From the NCBI GenBank assembly GCA_973895155.1, contig OZ316892.1:16482357-16546356 (forward strand): DNA of 64,000 nt. Direction: 5' to 3'. This document shows positions 1-47,449 of this stretch, piece by piece. Within the stretch, counting starts at the first letter, position 1. Each line of letters begins with the position of its first letter. Origin of the DNA: Marsupella aquatica. Its lineage: Eukaryota > Plantae > Marchantiophyta. The notes beneath the pieces were generated by a model that saw only the letters and a program-made list of their open reading frames with translations, was not told where the DNA came from and searched no databases. Made by a program: the position numbers and the translations under genes.

Positions 1-1
1 C

Positions 2-640: not shown

Positions 641-1024
641 CAGCGCCTGGCGCTACCAAAAATTCCAGGATTTACAAGGTTAGAATTCAGTCACACACCA
701 GACTAGCGCCAGGCGCTAGCATTATAGTGGACCCCAATAAGTCTACTTTTTTGTATCTAAACATGCAATATCGTCCAAATTTAAGCACCATTCATGGATA
801 TATGTACTAGCGTCGGGCGCTAGTATTGGTACACCATATGTAAGGACCAAATGTGAACGAAATTAAACTTCCTACGTCCGAAAGTACTTCATTTTCAAAA
901 ACTTTCACATAAACTGGGACCAAAAACATAATCGTGAATAGACCATGGAATGGGTAGCGCCTGGCGCTATCCATTGAACACATTAAACTTTATGACCAAT
1001 CTTTTTACTAGCACCGGGCGCTAG
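641..1024. repeat. Cluster of five palindromes (T)AGCGC-NNN-GCGCT(A) in the divergent intergenic region
   Basis: 641 CAGCGCctgGCGCTA; 703 CTAGCGCcagGCGCTAG; 805 TACTAGCGTcggGCGCTAGTA; 955 TAGCGCctgGCGCTA; 1008 CTAGCACcggGCGCTAG. Confidence 0.9.
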
Positions 1025-1255
1025 CAATGCATTACCAAGTTTTAGTAGTCTGGTCAACGGTAATATTTAATGGTAACTACGGTTAGCGTGATCTTCACGA
1101 AAATAGTTTAGCGGATTTCACATTAATATCTGTCACAGTTCTTAGATTGTCGCTTTGTTTTAACGATAAGTAATACCCAATTTCATCGTAACGTCTCTTA
1201 AATAGATTACATGGAGGGAGATAGCACTGATCAATGAGGTATAACACTCCATCAA

Positions 1256-2080
1256 TTGTTAATTTGGTACAGAGATTCAGTACTCGATCGTGAGAATTGT
1301 AGTGTACGACCGTTCGTACAACACTCATCGCGGGAGATGATGGATGCAGTCCCCTCCTCGTTGAGGGGGTATAGTGTTGTTGGGGATTGTGATCGTGGCT
1401 ATTGCGAGTCTTCTGAGTCTTCATTTTCAGGTTCGGTGTATACATGTCGAGTGACGAGGTCAAGCGCATCGCTTGTTCCCATCTCAAGTAATTCGCTTCC
1501 GAAGCCGACGCAAAAAAAGATGGAGAATGTTGACACATTTGCAATCGGAGATGTCTCGTTCTCGGAGACCGACCTTATTTTGAAACATGTCATGTTCTTT
1601 GGGAAGGATTTCCAAGGGTTTAACAAGGAGCCTCCTAGGATTCCGCTGTGTCAGTTGGTGCATATGGAGGTCATCCGCACCTTGCAGAAAGATAGCTCCT
1701 CCATTGACAAGTTGAAAGACTCTTTTCGTAGTATGGGATACAATTCATCGATAGGAATGAGGTTTTATGTTCAGCCGACGGACGCTGAGGGTGTGACGCT
1801 CACTTGCACACAAGAAATTTATGATACTTGGGATCCAATATGGATATCCGAAAACAAAAAGTTCGAGGAAGAATGTGCGGCAGACCCCGATTTTCTCGTT
1901 CTAAAGGATAAGATGTTCTCAATTTTTGACGGGAACCATTGGTTGTACTCCTGGACGCTTGTCACTAAGGAGAATCCAAAAAACCCAAAATACCACCCGC
2001 GAGTGCTCTGTATTGTCTTCAACGGGGACAAGGGTTCATTGATTGAAATTGAAGCGGCGATGCACACCGTGAACCAATAA
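1256..2080 (+). pseudogene. Exon encoding a ParB/Sulfiredoxin-like N-terminal domain
   Basis: SSIDKLKDSFRSMGY...FSIFDGNHWLYSW matches the ParB/Srx pattern (L..Si...G ... hhDGNHRh.A). The W codon TGG (1940-1942) is one C>T change from CGG (Arg). The apparent splice donor at ~2077 has decayed (ATAAGT for GTAAGT). Confidence 0.7.
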
Positions 2081-2170
2081 GTTTGTCTTTATAGCATATC
2101 TTGGAGAGGAATTGTTTTACGAGCGCCCGACGCTGCTTAAATGTTTTTCTAATTGCTTTCTTTTCCTTCA

Positions 2171-3501
2171 GGCTTGGACAAGCCGTGGTCGAACCTTCAT
2201 GGATCCTTGACGCAGATCAAATCAAGAGGATTTTGATTCATGACCTAGAGTACTATAGTAAGCTCATTGACCCTGCGAATTATAAGAAGTTTGAGCAGAT
2301 CAGGCTGAAGATGCGAAAAGGATCCTGGTACACAAAGAAGATGCCTCAAGAGGCTCTTGTCTATATTCTATGTGAGAATAAGATTAAATCATATTCTAAG
2401 CAGTTCAAGCTTGACATGGAGTCCGTTGTAGCCCTAGGTACCCCTTGGTCGGCCAAGGAGGTTTCCACAAGGCATGCCGTAATGATGAAGGAGGCCACCA
2501 AGGAGTGGGCAGTGAAAACATCAAAAATCACTCCTTTGTTGAGTCCAGAATTTGAGGGCTTTCTGTCTACGTTTGCATAAATGTATGCTGTGACGGAGAG
2601 AAATAAGAGAGAGAAGAAACCTAATACCGTCTTGTGTACGATGGACCAAGCCAGGCTTTTTACTGCTGTTTCCGCACTCGACCCCAAGCTCAGGAATACT
2701 TTGCTTGTCGCCCATTGCAATCCAGAGCTCCGAAGACAATTCTTCCATCCAAACAGCGTCAATGATGATCCTGTAAAACAGTGGTGTCATACCTGGATTA
2801 CATGGAACAATGTAGAGAGGATTGCAGCGGGGATGTTACAGTGTGCTTTGAGAGAGGTCCAACAAATCATTCCCGAGAATCGCTTGCAAGCCTGGGCATG
2901 TGAATCTTTTGAAGCTCTCATTGATACAGTTACTAATGATTTCAAGAGATACGGAGACTCGATGAAGAGTAAGTTTTTTAATACAATGTGGCCTTTAAAG
3001 TATCCGGACAAAGAGGACTACTCTTTGAAGAACCACAAGCGAGCAAAAAGGTACCTCTACCGATTTTACATCCACATGGAAGTAACTAGACCTGATTACT
3101 TCTCGGCATATCCCGCTGCTTTTCAGAAGTGGGCAGTAATATCAGAAGGTGACAATTATCTGATTTGTACTCTATGTACCCCACGGAGGGAATTTTCCCA
3201 GCAAGACCTTTAAGTGAATGGGAGAGAATCCACTGTCCATGGTACCCAGACACGGACAGATGGGACTTGCCCTTTGATCACCGAGAAAAGGATGCTTTCC
3301 AAAGCTCTCTAAGTCCCAGATACCAGTCAATATTGTTTCTGACCAAAGCAGGGACTAGCGAACGATGTAGATAAGTCCACAACAGAATTGCAAATGAACT
3401 ATGAGACCACAGTTGTTCACGTTGACCGAAGCCAGAAGCCACGCGCAAAAGGGAAAGATGATACTGCTCTCCCAAGTGAATCAACAAGGTCCGAGAAAAG
3501 C
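2171..3501 (+). pseudogene. Middle exon of the ParB-MTase gene (probably helical, unknown domain)
   Basis: Acceptor TTTTCCTTCAG at 2171. ORFs 2101-2580 and 2581-3213 are in one frame, separated by a single TAA, and a frameshift follows near 3190. Donor GTAAGT at 3502. Confidence 0.6.
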
Positions 3502-4063
3502 GTAAGTATAATTTGTAGTTCTTTGGTTAGCGCCCGGCGCTGCTATGCCATTCAATATATGTTAGATTGCATTTGTCTCATTTGTTCCAGAAATATATAT
3601 ATTGGCTTCCATCTCTTTGAGAAAGTTTGGCCAGCGCCGTGCGTTAGTATACTTTGCATTTTCCATACGCTCAAAATATAACATCGGCTTCCATTTGAGT
3701 AGGGAGAAAGTCATACGCCATCGGCAGCGGCAATACAAAGATAGATGCCACCCCAGAGGCATCTTAAGCCAATACAGGGCCTCCATCTGACCCACTTACA
3801 CCCATCGAGAAAGGGAAGTCAATTGCTCTAGTAGATACGGTTAGTACTAGAAAGAAGCAAAAAAGTGCAATTGAAGGTGGATCCTCCTCCGCTCAAGAAA
3901 GTGCGACTGCAATGGGTGTTCAACGTGAAGTTGGTGACTTCAAAAACACTCTTTCAAGGCATTGCATGGTTGAGTCTAGCATCTCAGAATTCTATGACAC
4001 AACGTCAACAAAGAGGAGAAGCCTGAATGGGTAAATGGTGTAGAGAAATGGGCAAAGGACCTC

Positions 4064-4900
4064 ATGAAGTCGGGATATCGAGACAAGGGCATTGTCCATG
4101 GGGGGAAGGAAAGATCCTTTGGAGTACACGTAGGATTCATTTACCTTCCTACGGGTCTGAAACCATCGCTGCTAGACAGAAAAGTCCCGAAATGGAATAC
4201 CCCCGACCACACACTGGCAACATCATTCTTTCGTGGAATGGACCCATTATCAAATGACGGAATGCTAGCAGTTTTGCATAATGGGGAGTACGATCCTATG
4301 TCTCAGGTTATATCCGCATGTCAGGAATCGAAGAAGTTTCATTGCATCTCCACACACAATGTTGTTATGTCAGTTCCTATGTACACGCCGAAGACTGACC
4401 GACAGGTAAATTCCAAGTCGTGATCTCTGTTTTTTACACTCAAGAATGTGTATGAATGCATGGAATGACATATCATTCTTGGTTTATCACGCAAATATTC
4501 ACGCTCAGGCTAGACGTCTTCTGCCAAGTATCTCATAAAGGGAAAGTACCCAAGGACTCAAGGTTTAGACCTCTATCTGTTATAGAAGATCCCTCCATCA
4601 CTAATTTAATTGGGCTTCCCACTCTCAATATAGATCCAACACCTGAGATGGAATTTGCAGGGAATGCCCATTTGTCGGTAGGATTCATGCAGTCTGTGAT
4701 AGAGCTCATCACTCGGCCTTGGGATATTTTCATAGATTGGACAGTTGGTTTGGGTAGCTCTTTTGTAGCTGGAGACTATTCTGGGAGGTTTGTAATTGGA
4801 CTGGAGAATCGGAAGGATTTTGTTGAAACTGGTTCCAAGGTGTTCTTAAATCTACTCTCTTCTAAGGAAGTAGAAACCTTGCCTCCCCCAATTCAACCAC
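4064..4900 (+). pseudogene. Beta-class (N6_N4_Mtase-like) DNA amino-methyltransferase domain with divergent catalytic motifs
   Basis: Motif order is IV then X-I. VGFIYLPTG (4142-4153 is the DPPY-equivalent position) ...W... LSNDGMLAVLH, an intron at ~4406-4493, then FMQSVIELITRPWDIFIDWTVGLGSSFVAGDYSGRFVIGLE. The last block parallels the consensus LlerlI...t.pGD.VLDpF.GsGtt..aa...gR.fIGiE. Confidence 0.72.
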
Positions 4901-5144
4901 CGGAAAAAAAAGGGACAAGCTCCGGTCTGTACTTAATTTTGACTCCGATGATGAGTCAAGTGGGGGGACAGCAGATGAAGTGGACGGGGAGACAACTCAA
5001 GGGGGGGTAAGGAGCAATCTGCTGGAGAGAGTGATAGCGATGACTCTTCCGAGTAATGTTCTGAAACTCGTAAGCTTCTTTCTCTTTTCCAGCTCCTTCA
5101 TGCATTTTGTGCTATTGATTGTACCTTTCAATCAGTTGACTTAC

Positions 5145-5443
5145 TGTTAGGAATTGACTCTAGTTCCCGACATAGTTAGCTTGGCCTTACTAGGGTTAGT
5201 TTTAACCCTAGATTACATTAGGATAAGATCCGCTTAGTTTAGGCCCACTCATCTTGGCCCCCTTGGGGGTATAGGCTGGAGGGAGAGCACTCTCTCCCTC
5301 ATTCTTCACATGTACTCTCATTTGCTATGGAGCCTTCAGGAGCTTCTCCACTCGGGGTGTCTTGTCGGTGTAGCGTCTGATTGAGTGAGTCTCTCTCTCA
5401 TGTTTCCGCATTGCTGTCTAGTCCGGAGCTGACGGTTCTTACA
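5145..5443 (+). repeat. 5' LTR of the copia element
   Basis: TGTTAG...CTTACA, 299 bp. By eye it differs from the 3' LTR by 4 substitutions and 1 indel. Confidence 0.95.
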
Positions 5444-5445
5444 AG

Positions 5446-5457
5446 TGGTATCAGAGC
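5446..5457 (+). promoter_or_regulatory. Primer binding site (tRNA-iMet)
   Basis: TGGTATCAGAGC lies 2 nt after the 5' LTR. Confidence 0.95.
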
Positions 5458-7141
5458 CTCGTGTTTGTGGTTCGGTGGCCTGGGCAGTGGTGAGAGCGTT
5501 CGTTGTGTTGGATTGTGGTGGAAGATTGAATCATTGTCGACGGTTGCGTGATCGTTTCACTGGTCGTTTCGCGTTGAAGGTTTCGTGCTTGAATACGTGA
5601 CGGTTTCCTGATTGAAACTTCAGCTTGGAGTGTCGGATGTGTCTCTGTTCTTTGAAGTACTGTCAAAAGGACAGTCTAGCGATCTCGTATGGCACTACGT
5701 TTTGGTGAAGGTGTCACTGCTTTTCATCATTGGTGTCCCGAGTAATCTTGTAGATTGAGGTTGCTGTTTAGAGCTTGATGCTCTAGGTTATGGCTTGTAT
5801 ATGTTTCGACTTAATCTTGTGTGGGGCCAAAAAGTCTTGTTTTCTTTGTAAAAAGATCGTGCGTTGAGGGACCGGTGTTGCAATTTTTTTTCTTTTCATA
5901 TATTTTTGTTTGTGCCGCATCGCAACAGAATACGGCGGTGCTGACGGGTTTCTTTGCGTATGTGCAGAGAGAGGGGCGAAAGGGAGATTTTATTGCCCGG
6001 GCACGTTGCCCTATGCGCGCGAGTGAGCCAGGAGGGCTCGAAATACAAAGGACTGAAGGAGGAGCGGAGGAGAAAGTCGAGCCCCTGGCCCGAGGCCCTA
6101 TGAGGTACTAGAGCAGGGCCTTATGTTTGTGCAGGTACAGTCGTACCTGTAAGTACAGTTTTAAAGTGAGGGGAGGGGGAGTTCAAAGCTCCCTTCTCTT
6201 GGGAGCTTTAAGGGGGCCATTGCCCTATGCAGAAGCAATAGGAGGGGAAAGGGGAAGCGAGCATACTCCTTTCCTTAGGGAGCACTTATTAACAGGGGCA
6301 TGAGGCCCTATGCTTGTACTTTAAGTGAGGAGGGGGAGCATACGAGGCTCCTTTCACTTTGGAGCCTTTAATTAAGGCTTGCGTCAGGTGGGTGGCCAAG
6401 GACACAAAAGGTACTACTGTACCTACACAGTACAGATTTGGGAGGGGGTACGAGGGGGTATTATATATCCCTGTACTCTACCAGGTACAGCGTACACAAT
6501 AGGTGAACAAGGAGATGGGCCGGTGCGCGACCCTATGTGCGAGAGGATTTTTTTTTGAAAAGAAATTGAAGGCCGGGAGGACGATTGTAGTCTTTTCGTT
6601 CTTAATTTTTTTTGTAAAAGCCAAAGGGTTTTTACTTGTTTTCTTTTCTTTTCCTTCCGTGTTTGGATCTTTTCTTTTCCAATCGGATAGGTGTCGGCTC
6701 CACATTCTTTCTGCTGTACATTTCGACTGTACTTTGATTCCCTGGAAAAGATACTTTTCCAGAGAGCTGATTTTTGACTGAAATTTTCAATTTCGGCGGT
6801 CGTCGAGGCAGAATTTTTTTGCGACACTTTGCAAGGGGATACTCAAGGGAGTTGAGCACGGGCTAGTGAAATTGATTTGTGCGTTGCTATTGCGAAATTT
6901 TTTCGGGACCTAAGATACCTGACGGGGGTCAAAATAGCCATTTTGACCCCCCTCTAGTCCGGGTTGAATAAGTTTTTGCTGAAGAAGTTTTTTGCCGAAT
7001 TATTTTCAGATCTTGGCAGTGTACCTTGCAGGCTACGTGGCGGTGCATTCCATTTCCACTTTTGCCAACTTTCAATTTTTGGTGAATTTTTTGGTGGAGG
7101 TATTTCGGTTGTGTATTTCCTGTGTGTTTGTGGCAGCATCA

Positions 7142-10100
7142 ATGACTTCAAGAAAGCTTGCGACGCCAAAGTTTGAGGTGGAGAAGTTTGACGGGAAGGT
7201 TAGCTTTAGCCTCTGGACTCAGAAGGTGACCAATGTGTTGATCCAGCAGGGTCTTGAGAAGACCCTCACTAGAGTGAAACCCTCGAATCTAACAGATGAG
7301 GAGTGGGAGGACATGTCGGTGCAGGCGTGTAGCACAATTGAGTTGTTCTTGGCAAACAACATTCTCAAGAACGTGTTGGGGATGGATCAGAATGCCAAGA
7401 AGATCTGGGATATGCTTACTCAGCTATACCAGAGTACTTCGTTGACTACTCGCATTTATCACTTGGAGCGGCTATTCAGGATGAAGTTGAAGGATGGTGG
7501 CAACATGCGTGATCACCTCAGTCTCTTCGGTGAGATTGTGCACAAGGTGACCACGGCGGGAGACAAGTTGACCGATGAGTATCTTGCGATGCATTTGTTG
7601 ATGTTGCTTCCTCAGACCTATTCAACATTGGTGACGGTCATCACACATGACAAGTCTACGTTGAAGTTGGATGAGGTGAAGGCTACCATTCTTGCAGAAT
7701 GGGGCAAGCGACAACTTTTTGGCCGTGACAATGAGTCTGCTGCCTTAATGGTTAGAGGCAGATCGATGGAGCGTACTACGGATCAGTCTAGATCTAAATC
7801 ACATAGTAGATCTAAATCTAAGTCCCGTAGTAAGAAAGTTCAGTGTTGGCATTGCCATGAGAAGGGCCACACCAAGTGGAATTGTCCTTCTCTATCGAAG
7901 CAAAAGCGTCCTGCTTCCAATGGTGCGTCCTCATCGTCAGCTGGTATTGTGATTGCTGATAATGAGGATGCTGCTGAAGTGCTATGTATTGGTGCTGTGA
8001 ATTCTGTGTATGACAATAAATGGATGTTGGATTTGGGTTCCTCTTATCATGTGTGTCCAACGCAATCGTATTTTTCCACTTACCAACCTTGTACCGGTAC
8101 GGTGGAAATCGGAAATGGTGTCCGATGTGCGATTGTTGGCATGGGGACTATCAAATTCCGGATGTTTGATGGTGTTATGCGAGCATTGACGGGAGTCAAG
8201 CACATACCAGACATCTCTAAGAACTTGATTTCTCTTGGTGCTTTGGAAGCTGGTGGATCTCATTTCACTGCACGTGATGGTGCGCTCTTTGTCGTCAAAG
8301 ATGATGTATCTTTGATTAAGGCGCTACGGCAAAATAATTTGTACATCTTGGAAGGAGATGTCATTGCTCCTAGAGTGGAGCATGTGGATTCTGTGGTGGA
8401 ACGTTTGGATGCCAGGACAACATCTGCGGCAGAATCATCTTTGGCTGCTTCAATTGAAGCACCCTCAACATCTGGTCACACACAAGCCATAGATTTATGG
8501 CATGCACGGTTGGGGCACTTGAGTGGTAAAGGATTGGCAGCCTTGGCAAACAGAGCTTTGTTGCAAGGCGCTCAATCTGGTAAACTCTCTTTCTGTGAAG
8601 ATTGCATCTTCGGCAAGCAGAGGAGAGTGAGTTTCAGTTCTAGTTCATACCATTCTCATGAGATTCTAGAGTATGTACATTCAGATGTTTGGGGTCCAGC
8701 GCCGGAGCCGTCGTTGGGTGGAGCTAGATATTTTGTGACGTTTGTAGATGATTACTCTTGAATGTGTTGGCTGTACTACATGAAGGAGAAGTCTCAAGTC
8801 TTTGAGATGTTCAAGGAGTGGAAAGCCATGGTAGAGCTACAAACTGGGAAGGAGTTGAAGTGTGTTTGGTCCGATAACGGTGGCGAGTATAAGTCCAATG
8901 AGTTTGACCAATTTGGTCGGGACCTTGACCTCAAGCGTCATTACACTATACCGGAGACCCCGCAGCAGAATGGAGTTGCAGAACGGTTGAATCGGACATT
9001 ACTGGAGAAAGCACGCAGCATGCTATGTAACCCAACAACTTTTGGGCTGAATCTGTCAACCAAGCTGCATACGTCTATAATCTGTCACCGCATAGTAGTA
9101 AGTTGATGCAGACTCCATTTGAGTTGTGGTATAAGAGACCTGCTGATTACTCTAGACTGCGAGTTTTTGGTTGTGCTGCCTATGTTCACATTGAGCAGAC
9201 ACACAAGTCTAAGTTGGATCCCAAGTCTAAGAAATGTATTTTTTTAGGCTTTAGTCCTGGGCAGAAGGGCTATAAATTGTGGGATCCTGTCGATTGCAAG
9301 GTAGTTGTGAGCAGAAATGTTGTTTTTGACGAAGAATGGTTGTCAAGACCCCGGGATATTCAGGAGGAACAGGTGGAGGAACCCACTACGGTGGAGCTTG
9401 GTGGTGATGAGGAAGCTGCTGGTCCCTCTGGTAGAGGAGCAATTCCTCAACCAAGGCGCTCCACCAGGGCCAATTTTGGCCACCCCCCTGATAGATTTGG
9501 TTTTGCAGATCCTCATGTTCACGTTGTTGAACATGACGATGATCCCGGTGTTGTTTTGCTTACTGAAGATGGAGACCCCTCTAGCTATGAAGAAGCTATG
9601 GCCTCTCCAGAGAAGGATAAGTGGTTGGAGGCGATGTTGAAGGAGATGAATTCTTTGAAGAAGAATTCAACTTGGCGCTTAACTGACATGCCTCGTGGGA
9701 AAACACTGGTTCCGTGTAGATGGTTGTACAAGAAGAAGCAGGATGGCACTTACAAGGCTCGCCTTGTGGCCAAAGGGTACACCCAGAAGGAGGGCTTGGA
9801 CTACACGGAGATTTTCTCACCAGTTGTCAAACTCGCTACTATTCGTGTTTTACTTGCGATTGTGGCATTCTATGATCTTGAGTTAGATCAGATGGATGTA
9901 ATTACTGCTTTCCTGCATGGATTGCTTGATGTGGAGATTTATATGACTCAGCCTCCAGGTTTTATTGATGAGAAGACCAGACACTTGGTGTGTAAGCTCT
10001 TGCGCTCGTTATACGGATTGAAGCAGAGTCCCAGACAGTGGAATAAGCATTTTGATTCCTTCATGTTATCTCAGGGTTCACACGAAGTGAACATGATTGT

Positions 10101-11147
10101 TGTATTTACATGAAGGAGGTGGAGAATTACTCACGCTTTGGTTACATTGTGTTGGCATTGTACGTGGATGACATGTTGATCCTGGCTGAGAATAAGTCTG
10201 ATGTTGCCCATCTGAAAGCAATGTTGAGTAAGGAGTTTTCAATGAAGGACTTGGGTCATGCCAAGAAGATACTAGGGATGGAGATTCATCGTGACAGGGA
10301 GCAAAGGCAATTATGGTTGTCTTAGAGGCAGTATTTGGAGAAGGTACTTGCCAAGTATGGAATGGAGAATGCAAAACCAGTTGGTACTCCATTGGCCTCC
10401 CACTTTAAACTCTCAAAGAATGATTGCCCTTCTAGTGAGAGTGATAGACTGGCGATGAAACATGTTCCCTATGATAGTGTTGTGGGTAGTTTGATGTATG
10501 CAATGACATGCACTAGACCTGACATTGCCCACGCTGTTAGCATTTTGAGCAGATTTATGGCAAATCCTGGTAAGCTTCACTAGGAAGCAGTGAAGTGGGT
10601 TTTGCAGTATCTGAAAGGTACCTTAGATTGTGGGATCTTATTTGACAGTAAAGCAAACTCTACATTAGAGTTGGAAGGTTTTGTAGATTCAGATTATGCT
10701 GGTAACTTGGATAACAGAAAGTCTACTACAGGCTATGTGTTTATGTTGGGTGGAGGTTGTATCAGCTGGAAGTCGGCAACTCAATCTTGTGTTGCGTTGT
10801 CTACTACTGAGGGTGAGTACATGGCTGCATGTGAGGCAACCAAGGAGCTAATCTGGCTACGGAGATTGGTGAGTGATCTGGGTCTTTCACCTGAAAGACC
10901 AGTGCTGCTGTGCGACAGTCAAAGTGCTTTGCATCTGGCTAAGAACCCTGTGTTCCATGCCAGGACAAAGTACATTGATATTCGTTATCACTTCATCCGT
11001 GAGGTGATTGAGATGAAGCAGATGTTTCTAGAGAAGGTGGCTTCAGAGGAGAATGCGGCAGACATGCTTACCAAAGTTTTACCTACCAGTAGCTTTAGTC
11101 ATTGTGTGGATATTATTAATGTTAAGGCCAAACCAATGACTATGTAA
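7142..11147 (+). pseudogene. Copia gag-pol polyprotein with stops and frameshifts
   Basis: Zinc knuckle CWHCHEKGHTKWNC; protease WMLDLGSSYH; integrase LWHARLGH, HSDVWGP, SDNGGEY, QQNGVAER; RT YKARLVAKGY, LYGLKQS, LYVDDML; RNase H DSDYAG, CDSQSA, ADMLTK. Breaks at ~8761, ~9040, ~10075, ~10325 and ~10583. Confidence 0.96.
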
Positions 11148-11214
11148 ATATGTTACTTAGTTACATATTGTATATCACCTGACTCATTGTGTGAACTTGA
11201 GTCAAGGTGGAGAT

Positions 11215-11514
11215 TGTTAAGAATTGACTCTAGTTCCCGACATAGTTAGCTTGGCCTTACTAGGGTTAGTTTTAACCCTAGATTACATTAGGATAAGATC
11301 CGCTTAGTTTAGGCCCACTCATCTTGGCCCCCTTGGGGGGTATAGGCTGGAGGGAGAGCACTCTCTCCCTCATTCTTCACATGTACTCTCATTTGCCATG
11401 GAGCCTTCAGGAGTTTCTCCACTCGGGGTGTCTTGTCGGTGTAGCGTCTGATTGAGTGAGTCTCTCTCTCATGTTTCCGCATTGCTGTCTAGTCCGGAAC
11501 TGACGGTTCTTACA
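11215..11514 (+). repeat. 3' LTR of the copia element
   Basis: TGTTAA...CTTACA, 300 bp, preceded by the PPT AAGGTGGAGA (11204-11213). Confidence 0.95.
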
Positions 11515-11535
11515 CTTACTTGGTTATCTACCCAG

Positions 11536-11842
11536 GTCCAAATGGAATACCAGAAAGCGCTTCCAACTCAGAAGAAAAGATGCAGGTTTTGAAATGGATA
11601 CACCGGAGAAACCATTTGTTTTGCCATCTTATGCTGAGAACGCTGTGAGAAAGGAGGATAGTCAAAGGACTCTGTGCTGGGAAAACAAAGGTCTCCGCCT
11701 TCGAAGAGGAGTTGACAAAAAGTTTGTTAGAAACCCGTATGTAGACGACATTTCTAACAGCAAGTATGTCGATGATGAAGCAGTCTCTACCGACAGATCA
11801 CAAAGCTCTGAATCAAAATCTCAATCAGAAACCGATAATTGA
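11536..11842 (+). pseudogene. Probable last exon of the ParB-MTase gene (acidic, Ser-rich tail)
   Basis: Donor GTAAGC at 5070 and acceptor CCCAG at 11535 bracket the copia insertion. ORF 11594-11842 ends ...SKYVDDEAVSTDRSQSSESKSQSETDN*. Confidence 0.5.
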
Positions 11843-12285
11843 TGGATATTTTTTTCCATCTTTTACTAGCGTCGGGCGCTGTTATGAAAATACATGTATT
11901 TCATTCCATATGCTCATAATAAAATTCTAAAAACCACTTGTTGTCTTTAGTAGCGTCGGGCGCTGTTATCGAGATACATGTATTTCTTGTATAAAAGGTT
12001 TTAAATTGGTCTCGTCCTTTAGTAGCGCCAGGCGCTCCCCAAATGTGCACGTTTTTCCTCAAACCTTTAAATCATTATATTGTTCATGCGTTCTGTCGCC
12101 ATCCTATCGCCATTCGTATATCGTCGTTACATTATTTAGTCGGGTCTATTTCAAAATAATTGTGTCGCAATTGGACTGTTTAGGCAACGGTCCTCTGCCC
12201 GTTGAAGCTCACATGTTACGGGTCTCCACCGATCTCCGTCCTTTGGTAGTCACTATGTCACCCTTTTGTAGTCACTAGGTCGATA

Positions 12286-12420
12286 AAGGTGCGGACATTG
12301 TCAAGCTGGTTGCGGACTTTAAGGCAAGGTGCAAATGTTGTCGAGCTGGGTGCGGACCTTAAGGCAAGGTGCGGACATTGTCGAGGTGCGTGTGGACGTT
12401 GTCAAGCTGGGTGCGACCAC
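12286..12420. repeat. Short tandem repeat of (AAGGTGCGGACATTGTCAAGCTGG...) units
   Basis: 3-4 imperfect copies of a ~40-bp unit are visible. Confidence 0.7.
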
Positions 12421-14288
12421 ATGGAGAGGAAGGAACCAATGTCGTTGGACGAGATGCTTGCCTTCTTCAGTCCTTCCCGAGTTTGACCGGTGGAGAGCCA
12501 CTTTAGCTCCTTAAAATCAGTTCGTGTCAACACTGAGACCGAGACATCAACTTTTCGGAACCGTAATTCTCTTCCTTACGATGAGGCAATTAGTACTGGG
12601 GAGAGAAATATTCCATGGACTGACGACCGACAGACTCCACGCAAATATGCGGATCAGTTCTCGTTTCATCAAGTCATTCCTGCTGATGGTCACTAGCCCA
12701 TTGAACGTCGGGTGCAAGAGCGGTTCAGGCATGTCGACTTCCTTGATGCAAATTTTCCAGGTGTCGTATAGTGCTAAGTATCAAAAGTGACTCTTCTCAC
12801 CTAAAACCAGGGTTTTGATCCCTTTAAGAACAGATTTCAGAATGAATTGTATAACTTTTATCACTCTGAGTGATTTAGAGTCTTGAGCTCTATGTTGACT
12901 TCACTTCTCAATAAAAAAAATCGAATAAACAAACAACAAAGTAACTGAACTTCTGATTTATGAATTAGAGAAGAAATGAGTAAGGATTTAGAGACTACAA
13001 GCTGCTACTGCCACTCCTTCAGAAAGGATTTGGGCTCAGTATAGACATGAAATCTATCTCATAATTCATCCATCTCACTCTTCAAAACACAAAGGTTAAT
13101 GATAATGGAATTCTCAATCTGATGAAGCAGAAGCTTTCTGATTGCAAATGAATGATATGATTTAAAATGCCGTCAACATGGTTTGACATCAGCGATACAC
13201 AATTCAGTCAAACTCTAAACCATATTCCAGAATCAAAGCAACAGTACTAACTACTCTGAGAATCAGAATTTACTTCTCATTTATCATTAACTATTCTTGA
13301 ATTGGCTAGCGAATCCCGACTCTGCAAGCAAGCCTAGCAGTGAATTCAATACGAGTTTCAGAAATCTGCAACTGAATTCAATCACCACAGGAATCTCTTG
13401 AATTCAATCTTAACTTCAATCAATATAGCTTTACTTCCATACAAAACACTCACAGCATGCCTTGTTACAATGGAAGGAGGAGCAAACTATTCAGAAGACT
13501 CAATTCTGAATACAGTATTAACTCTATTTCTCTCTACTTCAAATGAGCATTCTACTCTGTCTTATAAGTGCTGGAATCCTAAAATGGAGGAGATAAGAAC
13601 AGTCGTGCCTTTCCAAGCTTAAAACTAAACAAGGGAGAAGCACAGCATAAGTACTTCAACAAGGGTGGTAGAATACTACTTTACTAGTAATCTACTTCAA
13701 AAACTAAGTGTTGAGCGGACGCTGCTAGAAGCGTCGGGAGAATCTGGACGCTGCTAGAAGCGTCTTAAGTAAAACCAACGGACGCTGCTCACACTGCTCA
13801 CAGCGTCAATACTAGGGTGGACGCTGCTCACAGCGTCGTGTGTTGAAGCTGACGCTTTCCACAGCGTCGGTCGAAATCCTCATAGAGTCTTGGTGGCGGT
13901 CGGGCGCTGCCAAAAGCGTCATGAGGAGGTTGGACGCTTCCGCAGCATCTTGAGTAAAAGAAACGGGCGCTGGTCACAGCGTCGGGCAAAGTACACTAGG
14001 AATCGTCAGGAAAGCCGGAGATGTCAAATATTTCTATAAGTGTCCAGAACAAGTAAATGTTGGCCGGAAGGTGTCTAAAGTGTAAGTAAATCTTGTGATA
14101 TGCTAAAAATAAACAAGTTTCCAGAAAAAAATTGCAGGGACACCCATACCACACCAGGCCCCGGTCAAGCTCATGCTGAGCATCGAGTTCCCTCTTCCAA
14201 TTATATTCGGCTCAGGGGTTTAGGATTCAAGAGAAACTACAAGCAGGCGAGGGCGGGAGTCGATGATGACTATCAATCACAAAGCTAA
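12421..14288 (+). pseudogene. Small element-borne ORF of unknown function, split by a solo LTR
   Basis: Removing 12762-14158 joins ...IPADGH*PIERRVQERFRHVDFLDANFPG to PGQAHAEHRVPSSNYIRLRGLGFKRNYKQARAGVDDDYQSQS. This is colinear with the uninterrupted paralog at 21238-21452 (minus). Confidence 0.65.
12762..14153. mobile_element. Solo LTR (1392 bp)
   Basis: TGTCGTAT...ATACCACA ends; 5-bp TSD CCAGG (12757-12761 and 14154-14158). The empty site is visible in the paralog near 21361-21375. Confidence 0.88.
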
Positions 14289-32812: not shown

Positions 32813-32821
32813 CTACTAGTG
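32813..32821 (-). mobile_element. Possible CACTA terminus upstream of the TnpA-like gene
   Basis: CTACTAGTG reads CACTAGTAG on the minus strand. A partner end and TSD are not established. Confidence 0.4.
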
Positions 32822-33104: not shown

Positions 33105-33345
33105 TTGGGTAAGGATGTGACTAGGTACTTGAGGGCTTATTGGAAGCAAGTTGAGGTCTTCAAGATTGACCAGGCAACAGCTGTGTTAGAATTTTCTACC
33201 CTTGTTGAGCCAGAACTGAAAAACACAGTTGCAAACCTAGCTGTAGGTCTTGAGGAGGAGGATGAGTGGACTGGTTTTGTTAAGAGGATGAAACATCGTT
33301 TCTTGATGTCTGATAGTGAGAGGATGAGAGAAGCAACTTTCCTTG
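33105..33345 (+). pseudogene. Ty3/gypsy gag fragment
   Basis: GKDVTRYLRAY...FSTLVEPELK...WTGFVKRMKHRFLMSDSERMREATFLD resembles the N-terminus of non-seed-plant gypsy gag. It is mirrored at 39175-39415. Confidence 0.55.
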
Positions 33346-33349
33346 ATTG

Positions 33350-38500: not shown

Positions 38501-41500
38501 GACTTGACCCATGCTGTGACCCTTGGAGTTGCAAAAGTTGAAACCAAAAAATGGAAGTCACTATTGATACTGGGCTTTGTGACTTGCTTGATACCCATTT
38601 GTGACTGATTTGTGACTTTATTGTGGAGTCTAGCCTTGTTTCTACGTGACTGCAATATGACTTTGACGAGTCACCTGGTAAGTCACACACATGACTTACC
38701 CACATTCAACAACGACTAGCGTGTGACCATTTAGTGTCACAGGAGAGACCAATGGAGACCCTAGCCCGGGTCACACAATAGAACCATTTAGGACTCTATA
38801 TACTCATGTTTATAACTAATAAGGTTCACATGCAAGTTATAACCATGACTAATGAACACAGAGGGACAGTTCATAAGGAACCAGCAGGCCCAAGGCAAAA
38901 GGGCCACAAGGCCAAAAAGGACAACAACAGATGCTGAGGAGAGGGCTACCTTAAAGAAGGAGTTGGAGGAAGCCCACAGAGAGTTGGAGGAAGCCCAAAA
39001 GGAGCTGGAGGAGGCGCGCAAGGACCTGGACAAATTGCAGGAGGAGTTGGAGGAAAGCACGCGGAAGATGGAGAACTTACAACGACGAGCCGACAACCAA
39101 ACAAAGCGGCTAAAGAAACAGGCCGCAATATTTAAGTGCTTGGCTTCCTCAAGTCCAACTCCAATAGGGGCAATCAAGGAAAGTTGCTTCTCTCATCCTC
39201 TCACTATCAGACATCAAGAAACGATGTTTCATCCTCTTAACAAAACCAGTCCACTCATCCTCCTCCTCAAGACCTACAGCTAGGTTTGCAACTGTGTTTT
39301 TCAGTTCTGGCTCAACAAGGGTAGAAAATTCTAACACAGCTGTTGCCTGGTCAATCTTGAAGACCTCAACTTGCTTCCAATAAGCCCTCAAGTACCTAGT
39401 CACATCCTTACCCAAAAACTCTCCTTCTTTTGAAAGGACAGCCTGAAGACACTTGGTAACTCTATCCTCAAGGATCTTGTCACTTTTTTCTTTTCTTCCA
39501 AAATCTTCTTGATCACTCTCTTCCCACTAGAAGAAAACGTCCCCTTTTGAGACCCTATGCTTTGTGACTTTAGGGAGACTTTCAAAAATACATGACTCCA
39601 AGTTTAGGGGAGTCATTGTTGTTACATTTTATCAACTGATTTTTGGGGGATATTTGTGAAAGTCATTCCTACAACTTCTGATAAAGTAGCAATTGTAACA
39701 CTAGTAGGGCAGTCATATGTAAGTTGAATAAGCTACTCTTCATTATGGCATTCTGAAATAGAGTGCAAGAAGGGGTACATGCACTCTAGATATCACGGAA
39801 TGTTCCATTTACAACCCTTGACTTGCAACTTGCGGAGTCAGGAGCACTAGGTTCACATAGAAGGAATGGGGGTGGGTGGGTTGCAGAACTAGTTAAATGT
39901 CTTCGTGACAAGAGCATTGTAGTTATCCTAGCCTAATTAAACGTGCATGGTAGTACTTGCCTCTATAATAGTAAGTCTTATGCTGCTCAATGGATTCCTT
40001 AGAGTTCATGGGCAACTTTGACAAGAATATTAATTGGGGTGACATCATTTCCAATTCAGGGCTAAAGTAGTGTCTGGCCCCATTCTTTGTCCACCCTCCC
40101 TAAGTGGCATGTGTAAAGGTTAATTTACAGTTGCGTTCTAAGGGGTTACAGTTGTGTTCATTTAATCTTTGCTCACAAGTATCGTGTCCAATTTGCTTTA
40201 GGGTACTAACATGTGTATCAACGGCTCATGTCAACGCAAAGTGGTCAAGGCTCATTGGGTTTGGTTCACTAAGTGTTAAGGTATGCTTTGTGCGTGAGTG
40301 TGCCTTTGGACACGAGTTTAGGGTGCGCGGGTTTTGTTTAGGGTTTAAACACGCCAACAGAGTGCAAAGTTCAGTTCAATGTGCGTGGGAACTCGGAGGT
40401 TTTTGTTTCTGAAAAACTTGCTTGTCCATTACGGGGACATTCGTCGTGCCTGAAGGTCGGCACATTGTGCGCGGTCTCACGAAGTGGGGAGTGTGCTTTG
40501 CGATTGGGGCAGTTCCTTCGCGTAGGGAAGTTTTGCGCTTGGAGCTTGAAGGTCTAGAGCATTCAAGCTGAGAGGGCGACCGGCTTGCGGAGTGGAGAGG
40601 TGAGCTGTAGTGGGCGACGAGCTCTAGGACTGGGAGGAGCTGTGGGCGGGCAGGAGCTGCAATTTGGGAGCTGCTCTGGCCGCCGGTCTGGCCAAGGAGC
40701 TACGAGCGGAGAGGAGTTGGAGTGGAGTTGGAGTGGAGTACAGCTTCTGTCACACACTGCTGAGGATTGCTACGTAGCTTCAGTTTGGGCGGCGGTGCAA
40801 GCGGAGGTGCTGAGAGCGGAGGTGCTGAGAGCGGAGGTGAGGAGCGGAGGTGCTGAGAGCGGAGGTGCAAGTGGAGGTGCTGAGGGCGGAGGTGCGAGCG
40901 GATGTGCTAAGAGAGGAGGTGGTAAGAGAGGTGCTATTGGATCACTGAGAATGCCGCAACCTCTCTATCTTATTCCTACTATCTGGCGGTTGCAGTTGGA
41001 AGGAGGGTCGAGTGGCAAACATTTTGTTAGTTGAGGACTCAGCTGTGGGTTTGTCATTTTCTGGAGCTCAATCGCCTGTTGCTAAGACTATTGTTGCTAC
41101 AATTGCGAGTTGCTCAATCATGAGCTACCTAGCTCCATTATGAGTTGCCTCCCTATTCTCCTTATTGTCCCTGTCTCCCCCTTGCTTGCAGTTACTATCG
41201 CCGAGAAGAATGTGTTTGGCCAAGATGCTAGATTGCGACTTGTCTTCTTGCTTCTAGCTCGTGTATATGCTGGCATCCGTGGGGGTTCCTTGAGTTTGAG
41301 TCTGCAGAGGAAGAGTCTGTCATAGTCTAATTAAATGTGGGCCATATTACTCTGGTCAATGATTGAGTTCCCTAGAAATAGAAGCTCTCTGATTATAGAG
41401 GTGCGATTTGGTCAGAATTTTTTCCCCTCTCATTGTTTCCACTGATCCCAACTCACTTTCATCACCTCAATTCTGAACAATGAGTGTAGTCTCAGGCTCC

Positions 41501-43395
41501 ATACTGCCTATACTGAATGGTCTAGCTGCGATGTCCACCTCGGCTGAAGTGAGCTCTGACTTGGAGCCTTAACATTTGTGTTCTGTGGGGCTAAGTAGAG
41601 TTGGTTCCATCCAGAAGCTGCTCTACTGAAGTGATCGAGCTCCGGCTTGGAGGTGGATCTTCACTTTTTTGTGGATCTGAGTGACTTCTGTCTAGCTGGG
41701 CTAGGTTTCATATGTTCAGTACTACACATATGTACCTTGCTTAGTTCCTGACATTGTAGTTGGTGATGTGATGCAGCGTCCTACCAATTTTGTTTTGCCT
41801 TCAAAGCCTGTGCATGCACCATACCAGCAGGGGGGGCTGACCTCTGATCAAGGTTGGCGAGGTGGTAGTAGTGGTAGATCCCAGGCTGGTGCCCAATACT
41901 ATGGCAGGGGGCAAGCTCCCGGTTATGCCCGTGGTAGAGGCAGAGCAGGTCCAAACCCACAGTCTTGTGGGTATGGACGTCCACCTCAACCATGGGGATG
42001 TGAGTGTATATCTATATGCCAGTACTTTGTGAAGGCATGGCACTCCTGAATTTCAGACTGCATATCAATTTTTGACATTGTTTGGGATGTATTGGATTCA
42101 AACAACATGAAATTCTGTCCACCTACCATTGCATGCAGATTCTGCCCAACCTGATTGGGCAAATGTTGGTAATGATCAGTTCCAATGTCCACAAGGACAA
42201 ACATGGGTTGAACCAGGTTGGGAGGATGGTGGTGGGTCGTGGAATGAACAAGGTTGGGAAGGTGGTGAAGGTAATTGGCAGGGATATCAAAATACAGTAC
42301 CTACAAACGCTGGAAGAGGGGCAGGTAATGTCTGATCTTGTCAGCAATGGAAGAACTCATTATATCTGGAGTCCATTCATGTGGGGGGGATTCTACACAT
42401 GTATAATGAATGAAAATGTATGTGTGCAGGTTGGACAGTGGAACCATCAACTCAAATATTCACTAATGCCCCTATGCAGATGCAACACGGAAGGGGGCCA
42501 GGTATGTCGGTGAATGTTCAGTTGTTTTCCTACAGTTTGTACTTAGTTTTCAGTATATATGTTTGCACACACATACCTAGAAAGTGACATCATCCGGCCC
42601 CTGTACTAGACTGGACAGGTGGTCCAGGGTCGCAACAATTCCAGAGTGCAGTCCCTGCACAGGCATCTACAGGCAGAGCTACAAGTATGTATGTTTGAAG
42701 AATTTTTCTTGAAGTGAAGCATTGAATGTTGCCGTCATCCATTCTGCTGTATGTAGTTCTCAAGCATGAATGGCATTGTATTTTCCCAGGTGGCTTCAGA
42801 ACCCCAGGTAGGGTGAATGAAGGGGTGGCCAATACAACGCCCAGTACTACCGAGAGTAGTGCACAAGGGGAGGTGACACTCTTGTGCGGAAGCGCTGGCC
42901 AATTTTCCACTCAGTTTGGGAGAAGGAAATATTGAAGGATGATAAATAAGGAGTATGGAAGGGGAAGAGCTTTCTCCATGGTTGAGGCTTTGCTTGCTTG
43001 AGAGTTGAAGTTCTTGAAGTTGTTATGATGGTGTAGGACAAGAGTAGATAGGCTATTTTGAAGCCTTGTTTTTGATAGACTTGTTGGAGGGGTTGAGATG
43101 CAATCTTATACATACTACTTGGTGTTACTTGCTAGGAGGGTCTTGATGGAGACCTACTTTTGACTTAGAAAAACCTATAGTTATTGATTATTGAGGAGAA
43201 GTTGTCCTCAATTTTGTAAATGGATGAGTTACTTTGCTTTGCCTATGGATGAGGTGGATAATTTTATGATGCTTGGTTGATTAGAAGTCTTGTTGCTTAG
43301 AGTTGTCTTGTTGGTAACTGTCTACTATCTCAAGCAGCCATACACCCAGCGTGTTTCTCAAGACCTTTCCCACCTTTTTGCTTATCTTTAGGACA
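35532..43395 (+). mobile_element. Rearranged LTR retrotransposon, family B (gypsy-like), nested in LTR family A
   Basis: 5' LTR at 35532-37701 (TGTCATGAGG...CCTCAGGACA). PBS TGGCGACCATACTGGGGA at 37705-37722 (tRNA-Arg-like). A partial 3' LTR at 42877-43395 repeats 37183-37701. 4-bp TSD CCGT (35528-35531 and 43396-43399). The empty site is seen at ~61485-61495. Confidence 0.82.
38877..42878 (-). repeat. Right arm of the ~4.0-kb inverted duplication
   Basis: Reverse complement of 29640-33643, with a handful of substitutions and a net 2-bp length difference. Confidence 0.95.
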
Positions 43396-44570
43396 CCGTC
43401 GGCAAGCCAAACACTTCGGCAATCACTCGGGGAGTGAGATAGAATTCTTTCCCATACACCCTTGTGGAATTGGTCTTGGGCTCCCAAGATCCCACGAATT
43501 CTAATAAGTGTGAATCCGGCACCTCCGGCTTCAGCCATGGTAACTTTACGAAGGCTTCCAAGCCGGATCAGGCCATGAAGCCCTAGTACTTCCGAGTCTG
43601 CATAGCCATAAAGCATGCATCCTCTTTGCATGCAAAGTGTAATTGCACTTTCTCGGGGAGGGTCGCCGACCAGCCTTTCCAGGTGTCATCCCTTGTTGGA
43701 ACAACATTGATGGGGTCGACCTCCTCTTTTTTGGCTTCTTCCTGCCTCTTGCTCCCTTGCTCGACTGGCTTCCTTGGTGCCGTCGACCTCGTTCTCTTCG
43801 CAGGGGTGGTCTCTTCATTGATGTTCCCTTTCCTCTTCATAGCGGCTGCCATGGATGTTTCTCCTAGCACGGTTGCCTTCGTCCACCCCTCTGTGCTACC
43901 CTTCAACTCCCAGTGTATGTCATTGCAACGGTTGATGGCCTCCCGGATGCCGACTATTCTGTTCTCACAAAACAGAAGATCGTCAAGTTTGTCGGCAGTA
44001 GGCGTCCACAAGAATTCAGCCGTAATGAGTTCTCCTCCTAAGAAGGCAAACTTCTGCAGCTCCCATAGTTGAGCGAGCTCCTGCCGTTCTTGAGCGGCTC
44101 TCTCCGATTCTTCATCCTTGTAGGTCCTAATGTACTCAGTTTCCCGTTCTAATAGGCATCCCCATAAATGAGCAGCTTGATTGACGTTGCTCATACCCTT
44201 CTTGCATTGATTGCCGGTATCTGCTTCCACCCCGAGTGCTTGCCTGAGCAGCGGACAGTAGTTGGCCTCCCGTAGTCGTCTGCTTAGTTCGCACTTGCAA
44301 ATGAGCCGCCATTCCTTGCGATCGATCCTTACCCCTCCCTGACTGGTCTTCCTTCCCGTTAGTTACCTATAGCCGCCTGCACTTAGCGCGCCCTAACCCT
44401 AATCGTGTTCCCTCCCCTGGCGTTTTTACTTCCGGCCTCGGCTCGGGTTCCATAGCCACCCTTAATTGTTTATATTTTCCATATTTTTGCTACTACACTA
44501 ATGTGTTTCCAGGGTTTACTCCTTATTTTATCATTTAAACTGGCCTAGTGATTCCTGGCTAGGCATCACA
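43396..44570. mobile_element. Right fragment of LTR family A
   Basis: Colinear with ~61488-62661 and ends ...GGCTAGGCATCACA. Confidence 0.88.
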
Positions 44571-46632
44571 GGGACTCTTTAAGGAACGCGTCATCATTTC
44601 TTGGAGCCTACAGAATTTCAAGGGAAATCGATGTATGGTGGAGATCAGGGAATTGTGTTCCAGGAAATCTTTGGATGCTCCAAGGTTGGCTTGCGTGGTG
44701 GGTGGTCCGATGGCGTCAATGGGGAAATTTCATTCGTTTGGTGAGTTTCTACATCCATAAACAAGTAAACACTCAAAATCAACATTTTAAAAGAAGTAAT
44801 CAAACAAAGTCATACTAGCGCTTGGCGCTATCATTATTCCCAGTCACTTTTGTGTCCTAGGTTCACTCCAATATTTGCCAAGTTTTGATATTAGCGCCCA
44901 ATGCTAGTTTCCATTAACCACTTGTTACTCATATTTGTCCACATTCTAGTGTGAATGGTGGTAGCGCCAGGCCTTGGCATTGATTGCATGTGCTATAGCT
45001 TATTTGGATTGGGAATATGAAAACCTTACAAAAATGATTTGGTTCAAACATTTCTTTATTGAATGCAATGACTAAGTCATATTTCCTAAATTGTGCTCCA
45101 AATGTTTGATGCAGAACAAAAGCGTAGAGGAAAGCGCTGTGATTCCTAACTGTACTACTTTAGAGGCGGCACATTCCATAATGAAGGCTTGGCAAACTAA
45201 GAAAAAGGCTGGTCTATTTGAAGCATGTCAGATGGATCAAAGTAGGGCTCTCTCACAAGTTGCGGCATATACGGCGTATAAGAGAGGTCTTAACCAAGGA
45301 ACCGGACCTACAATTTGGGAATTGGCATTCCGTTCGGCAGACCAGGTAGGTTCTTCAAAGAATTTCCAAGATGCTTCCAATATGCTTCTTTCCGGTGCGG
45401 CTGAATTTGACCTGGAAAGGAGTGGCCCTCTCAATGGGGATGTTACCACAAAGTCTATGAAGAGAAAAGGTCAAGCCTCTGGGAACAGCTCGGCACAAGA
45501 CTCCCATCGGCATGACACTATTCTTGTAACATCACCACATACTTGAGGCATGAAAAGGAAAAACTTAAACAAGACTGAATTCTCCCCGGTTGCATCGGGT
45601 CCTGTTCACCATGACATTGGCGTTGTGGACCTGTCGGAAAGTGAAATTGAAGAACGCAGTCATTGGAGTACTCTGCCCTGGAGGAGGTCGACAAGGTCGT
45701 TTGCAGCCCCACAAAGTGCACCTCCCAACCTCCAAAAGGTTGTCCATGACTCAATTGTGTTGGAGACAGATGTGCGACCAGGGGCGTGGCACCTACGAAG
45801 AGTGATGAAACATGGTGCAGGGCCTCAGTGTAATGGATCTCTTGGTGGACAATCGGATTGAGATGACTGTTGCAATTGTCTGGAAAAGGTTGGTTTCCCG
45901 TCAACGGATGGTGTAGTTGGCATTGTTGTCAAAGGATATCGCGTGTTCAGGGGAGAACCACACCCTAAGATGATTTGGTTTTGTCCCAACAGTGCATGCT
46001 ATAAGAGCCGGCCCCGTCGTAATGTGGTGAATCTTCCCCCATTTCCTCATAGCCTACCCGTTTTGAAAGGAACTAATCTTTCTGAAGCTGAGGTCCAATT
46101 CCTGACTCAGCAAGGGATTGCGATCAATCCAGAGGCCGGACGTTAGGCTGCTCCATCTCCATTTGACTTGCGAATCAATGTGAACCTTTTCCCGGAGAAA
46201 ATCGATCTCCTTGAGCCAAATATTCGCCTTCGGAGCAGGAATGGTAAAAATACAATCCCACGTTCAAATCTTTCGCAAGGGCACAACAAAAGAATTGAAT
46301 CCACAAACAAGGAGTCGATGACCCTCATTCAACATTTTGATGTTTCTGTCGGGAACTCTTGGGGCAAACAATTTCAGATCCAAACCCAAGAGAGACTTCG
46401 TACGACAAACACTTATTGGGTACAGATTTGCATTTTCCCATGTTGTTCTTGTGAGGACTTCTATCATCGCCATTCTCATGGTAGGCCCTTCATGCCTTGC
46501 AAGCATCTCTATTGGGTGTATACCAACGTCCTCAAACTAGATGTGGTGGATTCAACTTTGGCTAGTCAGCCAATTTTGACTGTAGGTGAGGTGAGGCTCA
46601 TTCTAGCTAGGCAAAATTCTCTGGACTTATAG
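44571..46632 (+). pseudogene. 3' part of a Mutator-like DDE transposase with a C-terminal SWIM zinc finger
   Basis: An exon ends at donor GTGAGT (44740) and the intron runs to CAG 45114. It continues PNCTTLEAAHSIMKAW...D..RAL.Q...Y..Y..G...GTGP, where the N.xE..H pattern is the putative catalytic Glu. SWIM finger: YWVQICIFPCCSCEDF...FMPCKHLYWV (CxC...CxH). Confidence 0.65.
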
Positions 46633-47449
46633 ACTAGAGATTTAGTAACGTTCAACGGCTCCAAATTGATTTGTCGCATTGGAACTTTTCATATCTTTTC
46701 AATGATACCAAATCAGATAATCATTTTCAGTACACATTTGTTATTACATATGGCTAGCGTCGGGCGCTAGCTTTGATCAGTTTGTCCCATTTTGAGTGAA
46801 TCTGTTTGATTATGGTCCGAATGCTTTCCAGTACTTATCTTTGCGAACGGAATTTCTGTTTCTGAACTTTCCTATATTTGAGTTCTTCTCGTGGGATATA
46901 AATCTACCCCTTCCAGTTCACACTTCATTATGAATTTACAAACACCGTTCAATCGATTTGGTCTCATCTCAAACTCTTTGTTTTTTGTCAGCACCTAGCG
47001 CTATTACATAGTACTGTTCTGATTCCGATGATATTTTTAAGATTGTTATTTTTTTGAGTGTGCCTTGCCTCAGTAGCCTGTGTATGGTGGGACCCAGTCT
47101 ATGGTTTACGCATATATGGTGGAGAAGTAATTCAGTTACAGAGACAGCATGTGAATTTTGTTGTTGCAAGGAACCCGATCAAGTCTCACCTTTCCATAAA
47201 AAATGGGCAGAAAACTTCATATATTTACTAGTACCAGTTCCTGCTTTCCTATTTCCTGTCTCGGTGGTGATGCCCTACCTAAGGGTTCTTACCCTAGCTT
47301 CCATTTTGTAACTTTTGTAACTTTTGTACTTTTTCAATAATGCCATTTTAATTGCGGCAGACTGGGTCAACATCACTTTCCTCCCTCCTTCAAAACCCAT
47401 GAATGGTCTCCCTCACCCTCACCCTAACCCAAATACACCAAAACCTATG

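Follow-up and report, generated by a model that had tools for sequence, protein, structure and literature searches.

Introduction

ParB-like accessory genes with adjacent arrays of inverted repeats have already been reported from transposons of red and brown algae. In red-algal Plavaka elements the ParB-like protein PAG3 is encoded next to tandem inverted repeats, and the preprint's passages on this gene propose that PAG3 binds and modifies the element that encodes it (Petroll et al., bioRxiv 10.1101/2025.02.11.637652). The Ectocarpus element Sola1-1_Ec32 is described as carrying an accessory gene that joins ParB and N4C/N6A-methyltransferase (MTase) domains (PMC12477816). Adenine methylases fused to ParB and helix-turn-helix (HTH) domains are noted from chlorophytes and chytrids (Iyer et al. 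2016), and in the anti-silencing system of Arabidopsis VANDAL transposons, as outlined in its report, the intronic and intergenic motifs bound by the VANC protein are family-specific (PMC5735166). Here we analyze a stretch of 64 kb from the liverwort Marsupella aquatica (contig OZ316892.1, positions 16,482,357 to 16,546,356; hereafter the window), in which a short palindrome recurs 23 times in the non-coding DNA of a decayed DNA-transposon family that carries a gene for a ParB-like and MTase-like protein (the ParB-MTase gene). We propose, with a probability of roughly 55%, that the element's own ParB-MTase dimer binds the palindromes as its cognate sites, and that site and protein co-diverge such that each family would recognize itself, in a parS-like and VANC-like system of self-targeting.

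The locus resembles the Plavaka case, as far as the preprint's passages on PAG3 describe it, in that a ParB-like accessory gene sits in a giant DNA transposon with inverted repeats alongside, and in that self-binding with self-modification is proposed. It differs in that PAG3 is fused to a 2-oxoglutarate (2OG) oxygenase with the methylase encoded separately as PAG2, whereas the window gene combines ParB and MTase-like regions. The Plavaka repeats are likewise described as tandem arrays by the gene, whereas the window sites are mostly single, lie across the introns and spacers of the element, and belong to a land plant. The Ectocarpus gene shows the identical domain pair at a comparable length (1104 residues versus ~1200 in homologs from Riccia) and stands on the strand opposite to its transposase, as the window gene may too. 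It comes, however, from a brown alga and from the Sola1 superfamily, and the main text of that report describes no target site and does not contain the string 'palindrom' (PMC12477816). With VANDAL/VANC the locus shares short motifs that are specific to the element, lie in its intronic, intergenic and terminal non-coding DNA, are gained by tandem duplication and differ between related families. The VANC motifs are given there as 9 bp long, non-palindromic and in one orientation, and VANC demethylation has been shown whereas any effect of the window protein is putative (PMC5735166). No link between the ParB-fold protein of the window and VANC was found, no VANC sequence having been compared.

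Bacterial ParB, Noc and KorB with their sites parS, NBS and OB provide a further parallel in the ParB/Srx fold, a GxxR-type motif and several palindromes of ~15-19 bp near the gene. The window gene departs from them in having no HTH match, an added MTase-like domain and introns, and no ParA was seen. The window site is also unlike parS in sequence. Literature searches, incomplete in coverage, returned no account of a ParB accessory gene or of such sites in land-plant transposons. What appears to be new is therefore a land-plant version with a defined site, and an apparent switch of that site between relatives.

Results

The initial annotation of the window had listed about 22 copies of a palindrome. 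All 22 are present, 21 of them matching with at most one mismatch and 0-3 nt from where they had been placed; the copy at 44962 is degenerate, with three mismatches to the 15-mer used below, and one site, at 46989, had been overlooked. In the window, AGCGYNNNRCGCT gave 14 exact matches versus 0.03 expected, a number reached in none of 100 shuffles, and 23 matches versus 1.97 expected when one mismatch was allowed. We worked with a set of 23 sites, comprising 22 with no more than three mismatches to the 15-mer TAGCGCCNGGCGCTA and the site at 20485, which has four mismatches to the 15-mer and one to the 13-mer of the initial annotation. The search pattern for the family site is RNYAGCGYYNRRCGCTRNY. 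An exonic one-mismatch match at 1788 lacks the extended consensus and falls within the ~2 expected by chance.

Alignment of the sites yielded TAGCGCC-N-GGCGCTA, whose outer positions tolerate C/T and A/G. The fuller consensus R-n-YAGCGCC-N-GGCGCTR-n-Y describes a 19-bp site with 7-bp arms around a 1-nt center. In all 46 half-sites a purine stands two bases outward of the arm, followed by A/T-rich bases. Tolerance within the site is symmetric and position-specific, and TAGCGTCGG is a frequent variant that occurs in other family copies as well. What had been described as a variable 3-nt spacer is actually the 1-nt center together with C>T/G>A changes beside it. The earlier remark that deviations are mostly of this kind was borne out (22 of 25 in 22 sites, with the tolerated outer T/C and A/G set aside).

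All 23 sites lie in introns or intergenic DNA of the decayed transposon family, referred to below as host DNA, into which retroelements are nested. None is exonic, although 6.7 of the 11.4 kb of host DNA is (binomial 1e-9); the exon and host limits were drawn by us from tblastn and splice signals. No site with three or fewer mismatches to TAGCGCCNGGCGCTA was found in 5145-11514, 12761-14153, 15301-20000, 21454-44570 or 47101-64000 (52,480 bp). The absence from exons and nested retroelements, previously judged by eye, thus persisted in the window scan (0 sites in both). Assignment to one element family held in part: homology joins 1-15300 and 20100-21453, whereas 44571-47100 is placed with them by shared motif, gene order and orientation.

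The density of sites is highest at the ParB-MTase gene (1340-5144, plus strand; exons ~1340-2078, 2172-3502, 3702-4405 and 4490-5010), within or flanking which 11 of the 23 are found. Five (641, 704, 808, 955 and 1009; 641-1023) lie between this gene and the divergent gene X and are present in other family copies. One (2121-2135) is in intron 1 (2079-2171), two (3528 and 3632; 3528-3646) are in intron 2 (~3503-3701), none is in intron 3, and three (11867, 11951 and 12023; 11867-12037) follow directly 3' of the gene. The others are distributed through the interior of the element: two (14370 and 14558; 14370-14572) between genes Y and Z, as parts of degenerate tandem units, five (20485, 20642, 20695, 20865 and 21157; 20485-21171) in an inverted second copy, three (44816, 44892 and 44962; 44816-44976) in the intron (~44742-45110) of a transposase-like gene that ends in a SWIM finger, and two (46755 and 46989; 46755-47003) 3' of that gene. 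Sites flank every gene of the element.

Pairing between the arms was no commoner than in shuffles at five position pairs (9, 8, 10, 15 and 13 observed versus shuffle means of 12.2, 8.1, 11.6, 16.3 and 14.9). Covariation of the arms is thus absent, and what is conserved is their sequence, not their ability to pair; a hairpin or cruciform was rejected on this ground. A miniature inverted-repeat transposable element (MITE) was rejected because direct repeats of at least 3 bp are absent from the flanks of 22 of the 23 sites and the copies do not each show a target-site duplication (TSD) with a shared body. Two further readings, a hairpin as at the 3' end of Helitrons and the excision footprint of a Tc1/mariner element, were rejected because CTAG falls within the palindrome and the 11 bp separating the TAs are invariant. 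The earlier claim of unrelated flanks applies to most sites; 11 of the 23 have flanks that match no other site. It does not apply to the pair 11867/11951, a local duplication, nor to six sites (14370, 14558, 20642, 20695, 20865 and 21157) that share flanks in degenerate tandem units of 160-290 bp. Of the 253 site pairs, 11 exceeded the 99.5% null of flank similarity (~1 expected), and seven of these fall within this six-site group. Such sharing indicates that part of the sites spread by local duplication.

Four public runs contain the family in many copies. In a diverged contig (runs X2/X3, from one study) the upstream region aligns only as islands of 21-30 nt before the alignment continues into the gene. 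Two of the islands are sites (702-722 and 805-829), and long loose ends in all four runs end at the site borders 702, 805 or 825. The CpG-rich 15-mer is retained where its flanks have diverged past alignment. Positional homology of the island sites is likely, with the qualification that an aligner could place any copy of the palindrome there. At 1013 and 3640 the window copy deviates, whereas the consensus base is found there in other copies. The listed indels and joints include no contig that lacks a site, except at joints with unknown or replaced intervening sequence. For positions 625-1035, using 40 of 61 variant rows, outer-arm variation affected 1 of 50 positions versus 32 of 336 in the flanks (p=0.053), and CpG bases varied at 1 of 18 positions in sites versus 4 of 10 in flanks (p=0.04). 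We take these variant rows as modest evidence that the sites are under constraint.

A search with exon 1 of the ParB-MTase gene found 194 relatives (E no higher than 0.001). Among the 20 that were looked up, ten were named, as Riccia sorocarpa (seven) and Adiantum nelumboides (three), and two more were given only as 'hypothetical protein'. The Riccia proteins P0153 and P0021 align over the full gene. The ParB-like label of the initial annotation was supported by two structure searches, at moderate scores within a single superfamily. The predicted model of the domain had a pLDDT of 95. With Foldseek the 12 best-ranked rows were all ParB/Noc/KorB (probability 0.94-1.0, E 0.016-0.069, none at 0.001), and with VIA 12 of 12 matches were ParB/Srx-type (best Z 6.8, rmsd 3.1, 95 aligned). 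The GxxR nucleotide-binding motif reads GNHR in 11 of 14 aligned rows, GNHW in the window copy and P0014, and GNYQ in P0016. Neither the ParB domain nor any of the genes X, Y and Z had a Pfam match, sequence searches of PDB gave no match, a search of viral contigs gave 0 loci for the ParB domain, genome contigs yielded a single marginal match of 21 residues (L006) that was set aside, and a word-index homolog search with exon 1 found no match, which is a weak negative. In the ESM Atlas, window 1340-2077 lies near ParB_N and near fungal DUF3723 clusters, 47% of whose members carry DUF3723. This family, known from Starship elements, may be ParB-like; a literature search on DUF3723 with ParB found no paper.

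The C-terminal side of the protein carries the S-adenosylmethionine (SAM)-binding motif I of N6_N4_Mtase (PF01555), detected in Riccia homologs at E 9e-6 to 5e-5, just under the gathering score. The C-terminal piece from the window matched the same profile at E 0.063, at positions identical to those of Riccia, and tblastn links the two at 2e-7. In the window the gene is a pseudogene, with stops, a frameshift and a copia insertion. No Pfam match to a ParA or motor partner was found among the open reading frames of the window, in which the element is incomplete and decayed.

Five metagenome loci (L001-L005), each shorter than 2 kb, encode the ParB domain. L002 holds a 62% identical homolog with an intron at the identical position, and 15 of 15 matches to AAGCYNNNNRGCTT lie in that intron 1 (0.5 expected); the window motif is absent from this locus. 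At 422-990 of L002, GRGCTTC half-sites stand head-to-head and tail-to-tail in a degenerate tandem repeat of ~20 bp. Intron 1 of L003 contains two exact copies of TCTCRGC-N7-GCYGAGA. The L003 motif recurs in the window at 50398-50780, as five copies of ATCTCRGC-N6/7-GCYGAGAT, three of them exact (0.00 expected) and two degenerate. An intron of another transposase-like gene (~48800-53300, minus strand), presumably P/THAP-like by motif, holds this cluster, and the window contains no second ParB gene. A PHD-finger reading frame lies by this gene at 53709-54065. Comparison of the three motifs revealed, post hoc, a common core RGC-N6/7-GCY. On the sequences compared, the homologous loci favor the ParB protein over a transposase as the putative binder.

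The window as a whole is nested plant transposon DNA, in which a copia element, a solo long terminal repeat (LTR) and a large LTR-derived block interrupt host DNA. In host copy A the order is gene X (minus), five sites, the ParB-MTase gene (plus, with three intronic sites), three sites, gene Y, two sites and gene Z (minus). Gene X is represented by its 5' part (1-409, minus strand), which leaves the window and is possibly the 5' end of the transposase. The copia retrotransposon (5145-11514, plus strand) has LTRs 98.3% alike and the TSD CTTAC. Beyond it follows the C-terminal end of the ParB-MTase gene (11515-11842, plus strand), where the end of Riccia P0021 is weakly matched (E 0.03). The exon of gene Y (12440-14288, plus strand; ~12440-12761 and 14154-14288) is interrupted by the solo LTR (12762-14153), and compared with the second copy its substitutions are most frequent at third codon positions. 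This solo LTR has TG..CA ends, the TSD CCAGG and seven GACGCT-N6-AGCGTC palindromes at 13718-13983; its half-site AGCGTC equals the host half-site in the opposite arrangement. The first exon of gene Z (15047-15250, minus strand) contains a CxxC motif and has a homolog at ~20215-20337 (plus strand).

The inverted second copy of the Y-Z part (20244-21453) is 62-78% identical (62-65% to 14154-15130). Next to it stands the LTR-derived block (21454-44570), whose flanking 5-mers differ (AGGAA and GGGAC); given this mismatch, host DNA was probably deleted there. The 3' part of the decayed transposase-like gene follows (44572-46632, plus strand). Its SWIM finger is marked by Atlas features at 0.92. 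No Pfam or homolog match was obtained for this gene, and word-index searches with a transposase piece and a 518-residue read-through were empty, both weak negatives; its W-rich and E motifs may point to a likeness to MULE. Gene order and orientation would fit a single family in which the middle of the second copy was deleted. Neither terminal inverted repeats by the site clusters nor other ends of the element were found, its left end lying beyond the window.

Several other features were recorded. A 2.8-kb TG..CA element with long minus-strand frames occurs in 21454-44570 and at 59869-62662; the second copy has the TSD GACTT, and pieces of the element bracket the nested block. Within that block, 29640-33643 and 38877-42878 form a 4.0-kb inverted duplication, 99.8% identical, reflecting a recent event or an assembly artefact. 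A C-terminal fragment of a LINE-like reverse transcriptase (17629-18681, minus strand) lies between the two host copies. Short degenerate tandem arrays occur at 16017-16282 (units of 58-72 bp), 12286-12464 (40 bp) and 53346-53550 (27-62 bp).

Discussion

The initial annotation had read the palindromes as binding sites of a dimeric protein. Position-specific symmetry, lack of covariation between the arms, lack of TSDs and exclusion from exons fit a sequence-specific dimeric protein of the element; that such a protein binds them is our reading of these patterns. If the protein is that of the ParB-MTase gene, the dimer would read the two half-sites, probably through its helical middle region. New sites would arise by local duplication and persist wherever coding permits, and protein and site would change jointly between families, so that each family targets itself. 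More speculatively, the loaded protein may spread along the element and mark it or shield it against host silencing, as VANC does for VANDAL.

Several observations weigh against this proposal. A clear repeated palindrome was present in only two of the five homologous loci: L004 holds a single copy, no closer to the motif than chance matches come, and L001 (with only 60 bp of intron) and L005 have none. Since all five loci are shorter than 2 kb, a ParB gene cannot be separated in them from its own transposase. The L003 motif in a transposase intron of the window would fit sites of either a trans-acting ParB or a transposase. The constraint statistics are borderline, drawn as they are from part of the variant rows. 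The observed/expected (o/e) ratio of CpG, a proxy for methylation, shows no gradient around the sites (0.74, 0.71, 0.75 and 0.66 out to 1 kb), and its range in host DNA (0.58-0.95) overlaps that of the nested LTR elements (0.57-0.71). Fold searches of the all-helical middle domain found no match to a ParB-type HTH. The canonical catalytic motif of N4C/N6A-MTases is DPPY, or more generally (D/S/N)PP(Y/F). The corresponding residues are DLPT in Riccia, DVPF in Adiantum P0117 and YLPT in the window copy, and with such a non-canonical motif methylation may not occur.

The initial annotation had also named the transposase as a candidate binder. We consider it fairly unlikely that the transposase of the element, or a regulator derived from it, binds the sites for self-activation or synapsis. 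TnpA of Spm is the model for such a regulator. Five sites do lie in or directly 3' of the SWIM transposase-like gene, and the second transposase-like gene carries its own intronic palindrome cluster with no ParB gene nearby. A 2026 preprint, in its statements on this point, further reports that the AtMu1 transposase and TnpA activate in a sequence-specific manner. Against this, the sites extend throughout the interior and are densest at the ParB-MTase gene, no terminal inverted repeats accompany the clusters, and the palindromes of L002 and L003 lie in the ParB gene's own intron.

It is improbable that the sites are bound by another protein of the element (X, Y or Z) or by a recruited host transcription factor. 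Three further uncharacterized genes do stand among the sites, which flank them all, but X, Y and Z have no recognized DNA-binding domain, and a host factor would not account for the change of palindrome between close relatives within one and the same intron. Least probable, if only slightly, is a neutral reading with no cognate protein, in which the palindromes are left over from old tandem repeats, very small MITEs or hairpin-forming DNA or RNA. The tandem-like units of six sites, the degenerate L002 array and the borderline statistics speak for it; against it stand the near-absence of direct repeats, the arms without covariation, the 11 sites with unique flanks, the lack of site-less contigs among the listed indels and joints (those with unknown or replaced sequence excepted) and the persistence of the CpG-rich 15-mer beyond alignable flanks.

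Returning to the ParB-MTase protein as binder, a broader and tentative extension would be a eukaryotic parS-ParB system in giant DNA transposons of land plants. In such a system a CTP-gated clamp would load at family-specific palindromes, slide over the 15-20 kb element, and either write N4mC/N6mA or exclude silencing. The cassette would pass from one transposase superfamily to another, and the RGC-N6/7-GCY core common to the three motifs would record a common mode of recognition from which specificity diverged by family. We think this picture unlikely as a whole.

Self-binding and self-modification by ParB-like proteins were proposed in two algal papers of 2025, whose passages on the subject give neither a site sequence nor a test. 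With a 19-bp site defined, a protein paired with it and another site present in a close relative, the idea becomes directly testable by a swap. If true, a clamp of bacterial chromosome partition would have been reused in land plants as a sequence-specific device for epigenetic self-marking. Anti-silencing of the VANC kind would then be reached by a second route, independent of the first, and liverworts and ferns would have a possible source of non-canonical DNA methylation.

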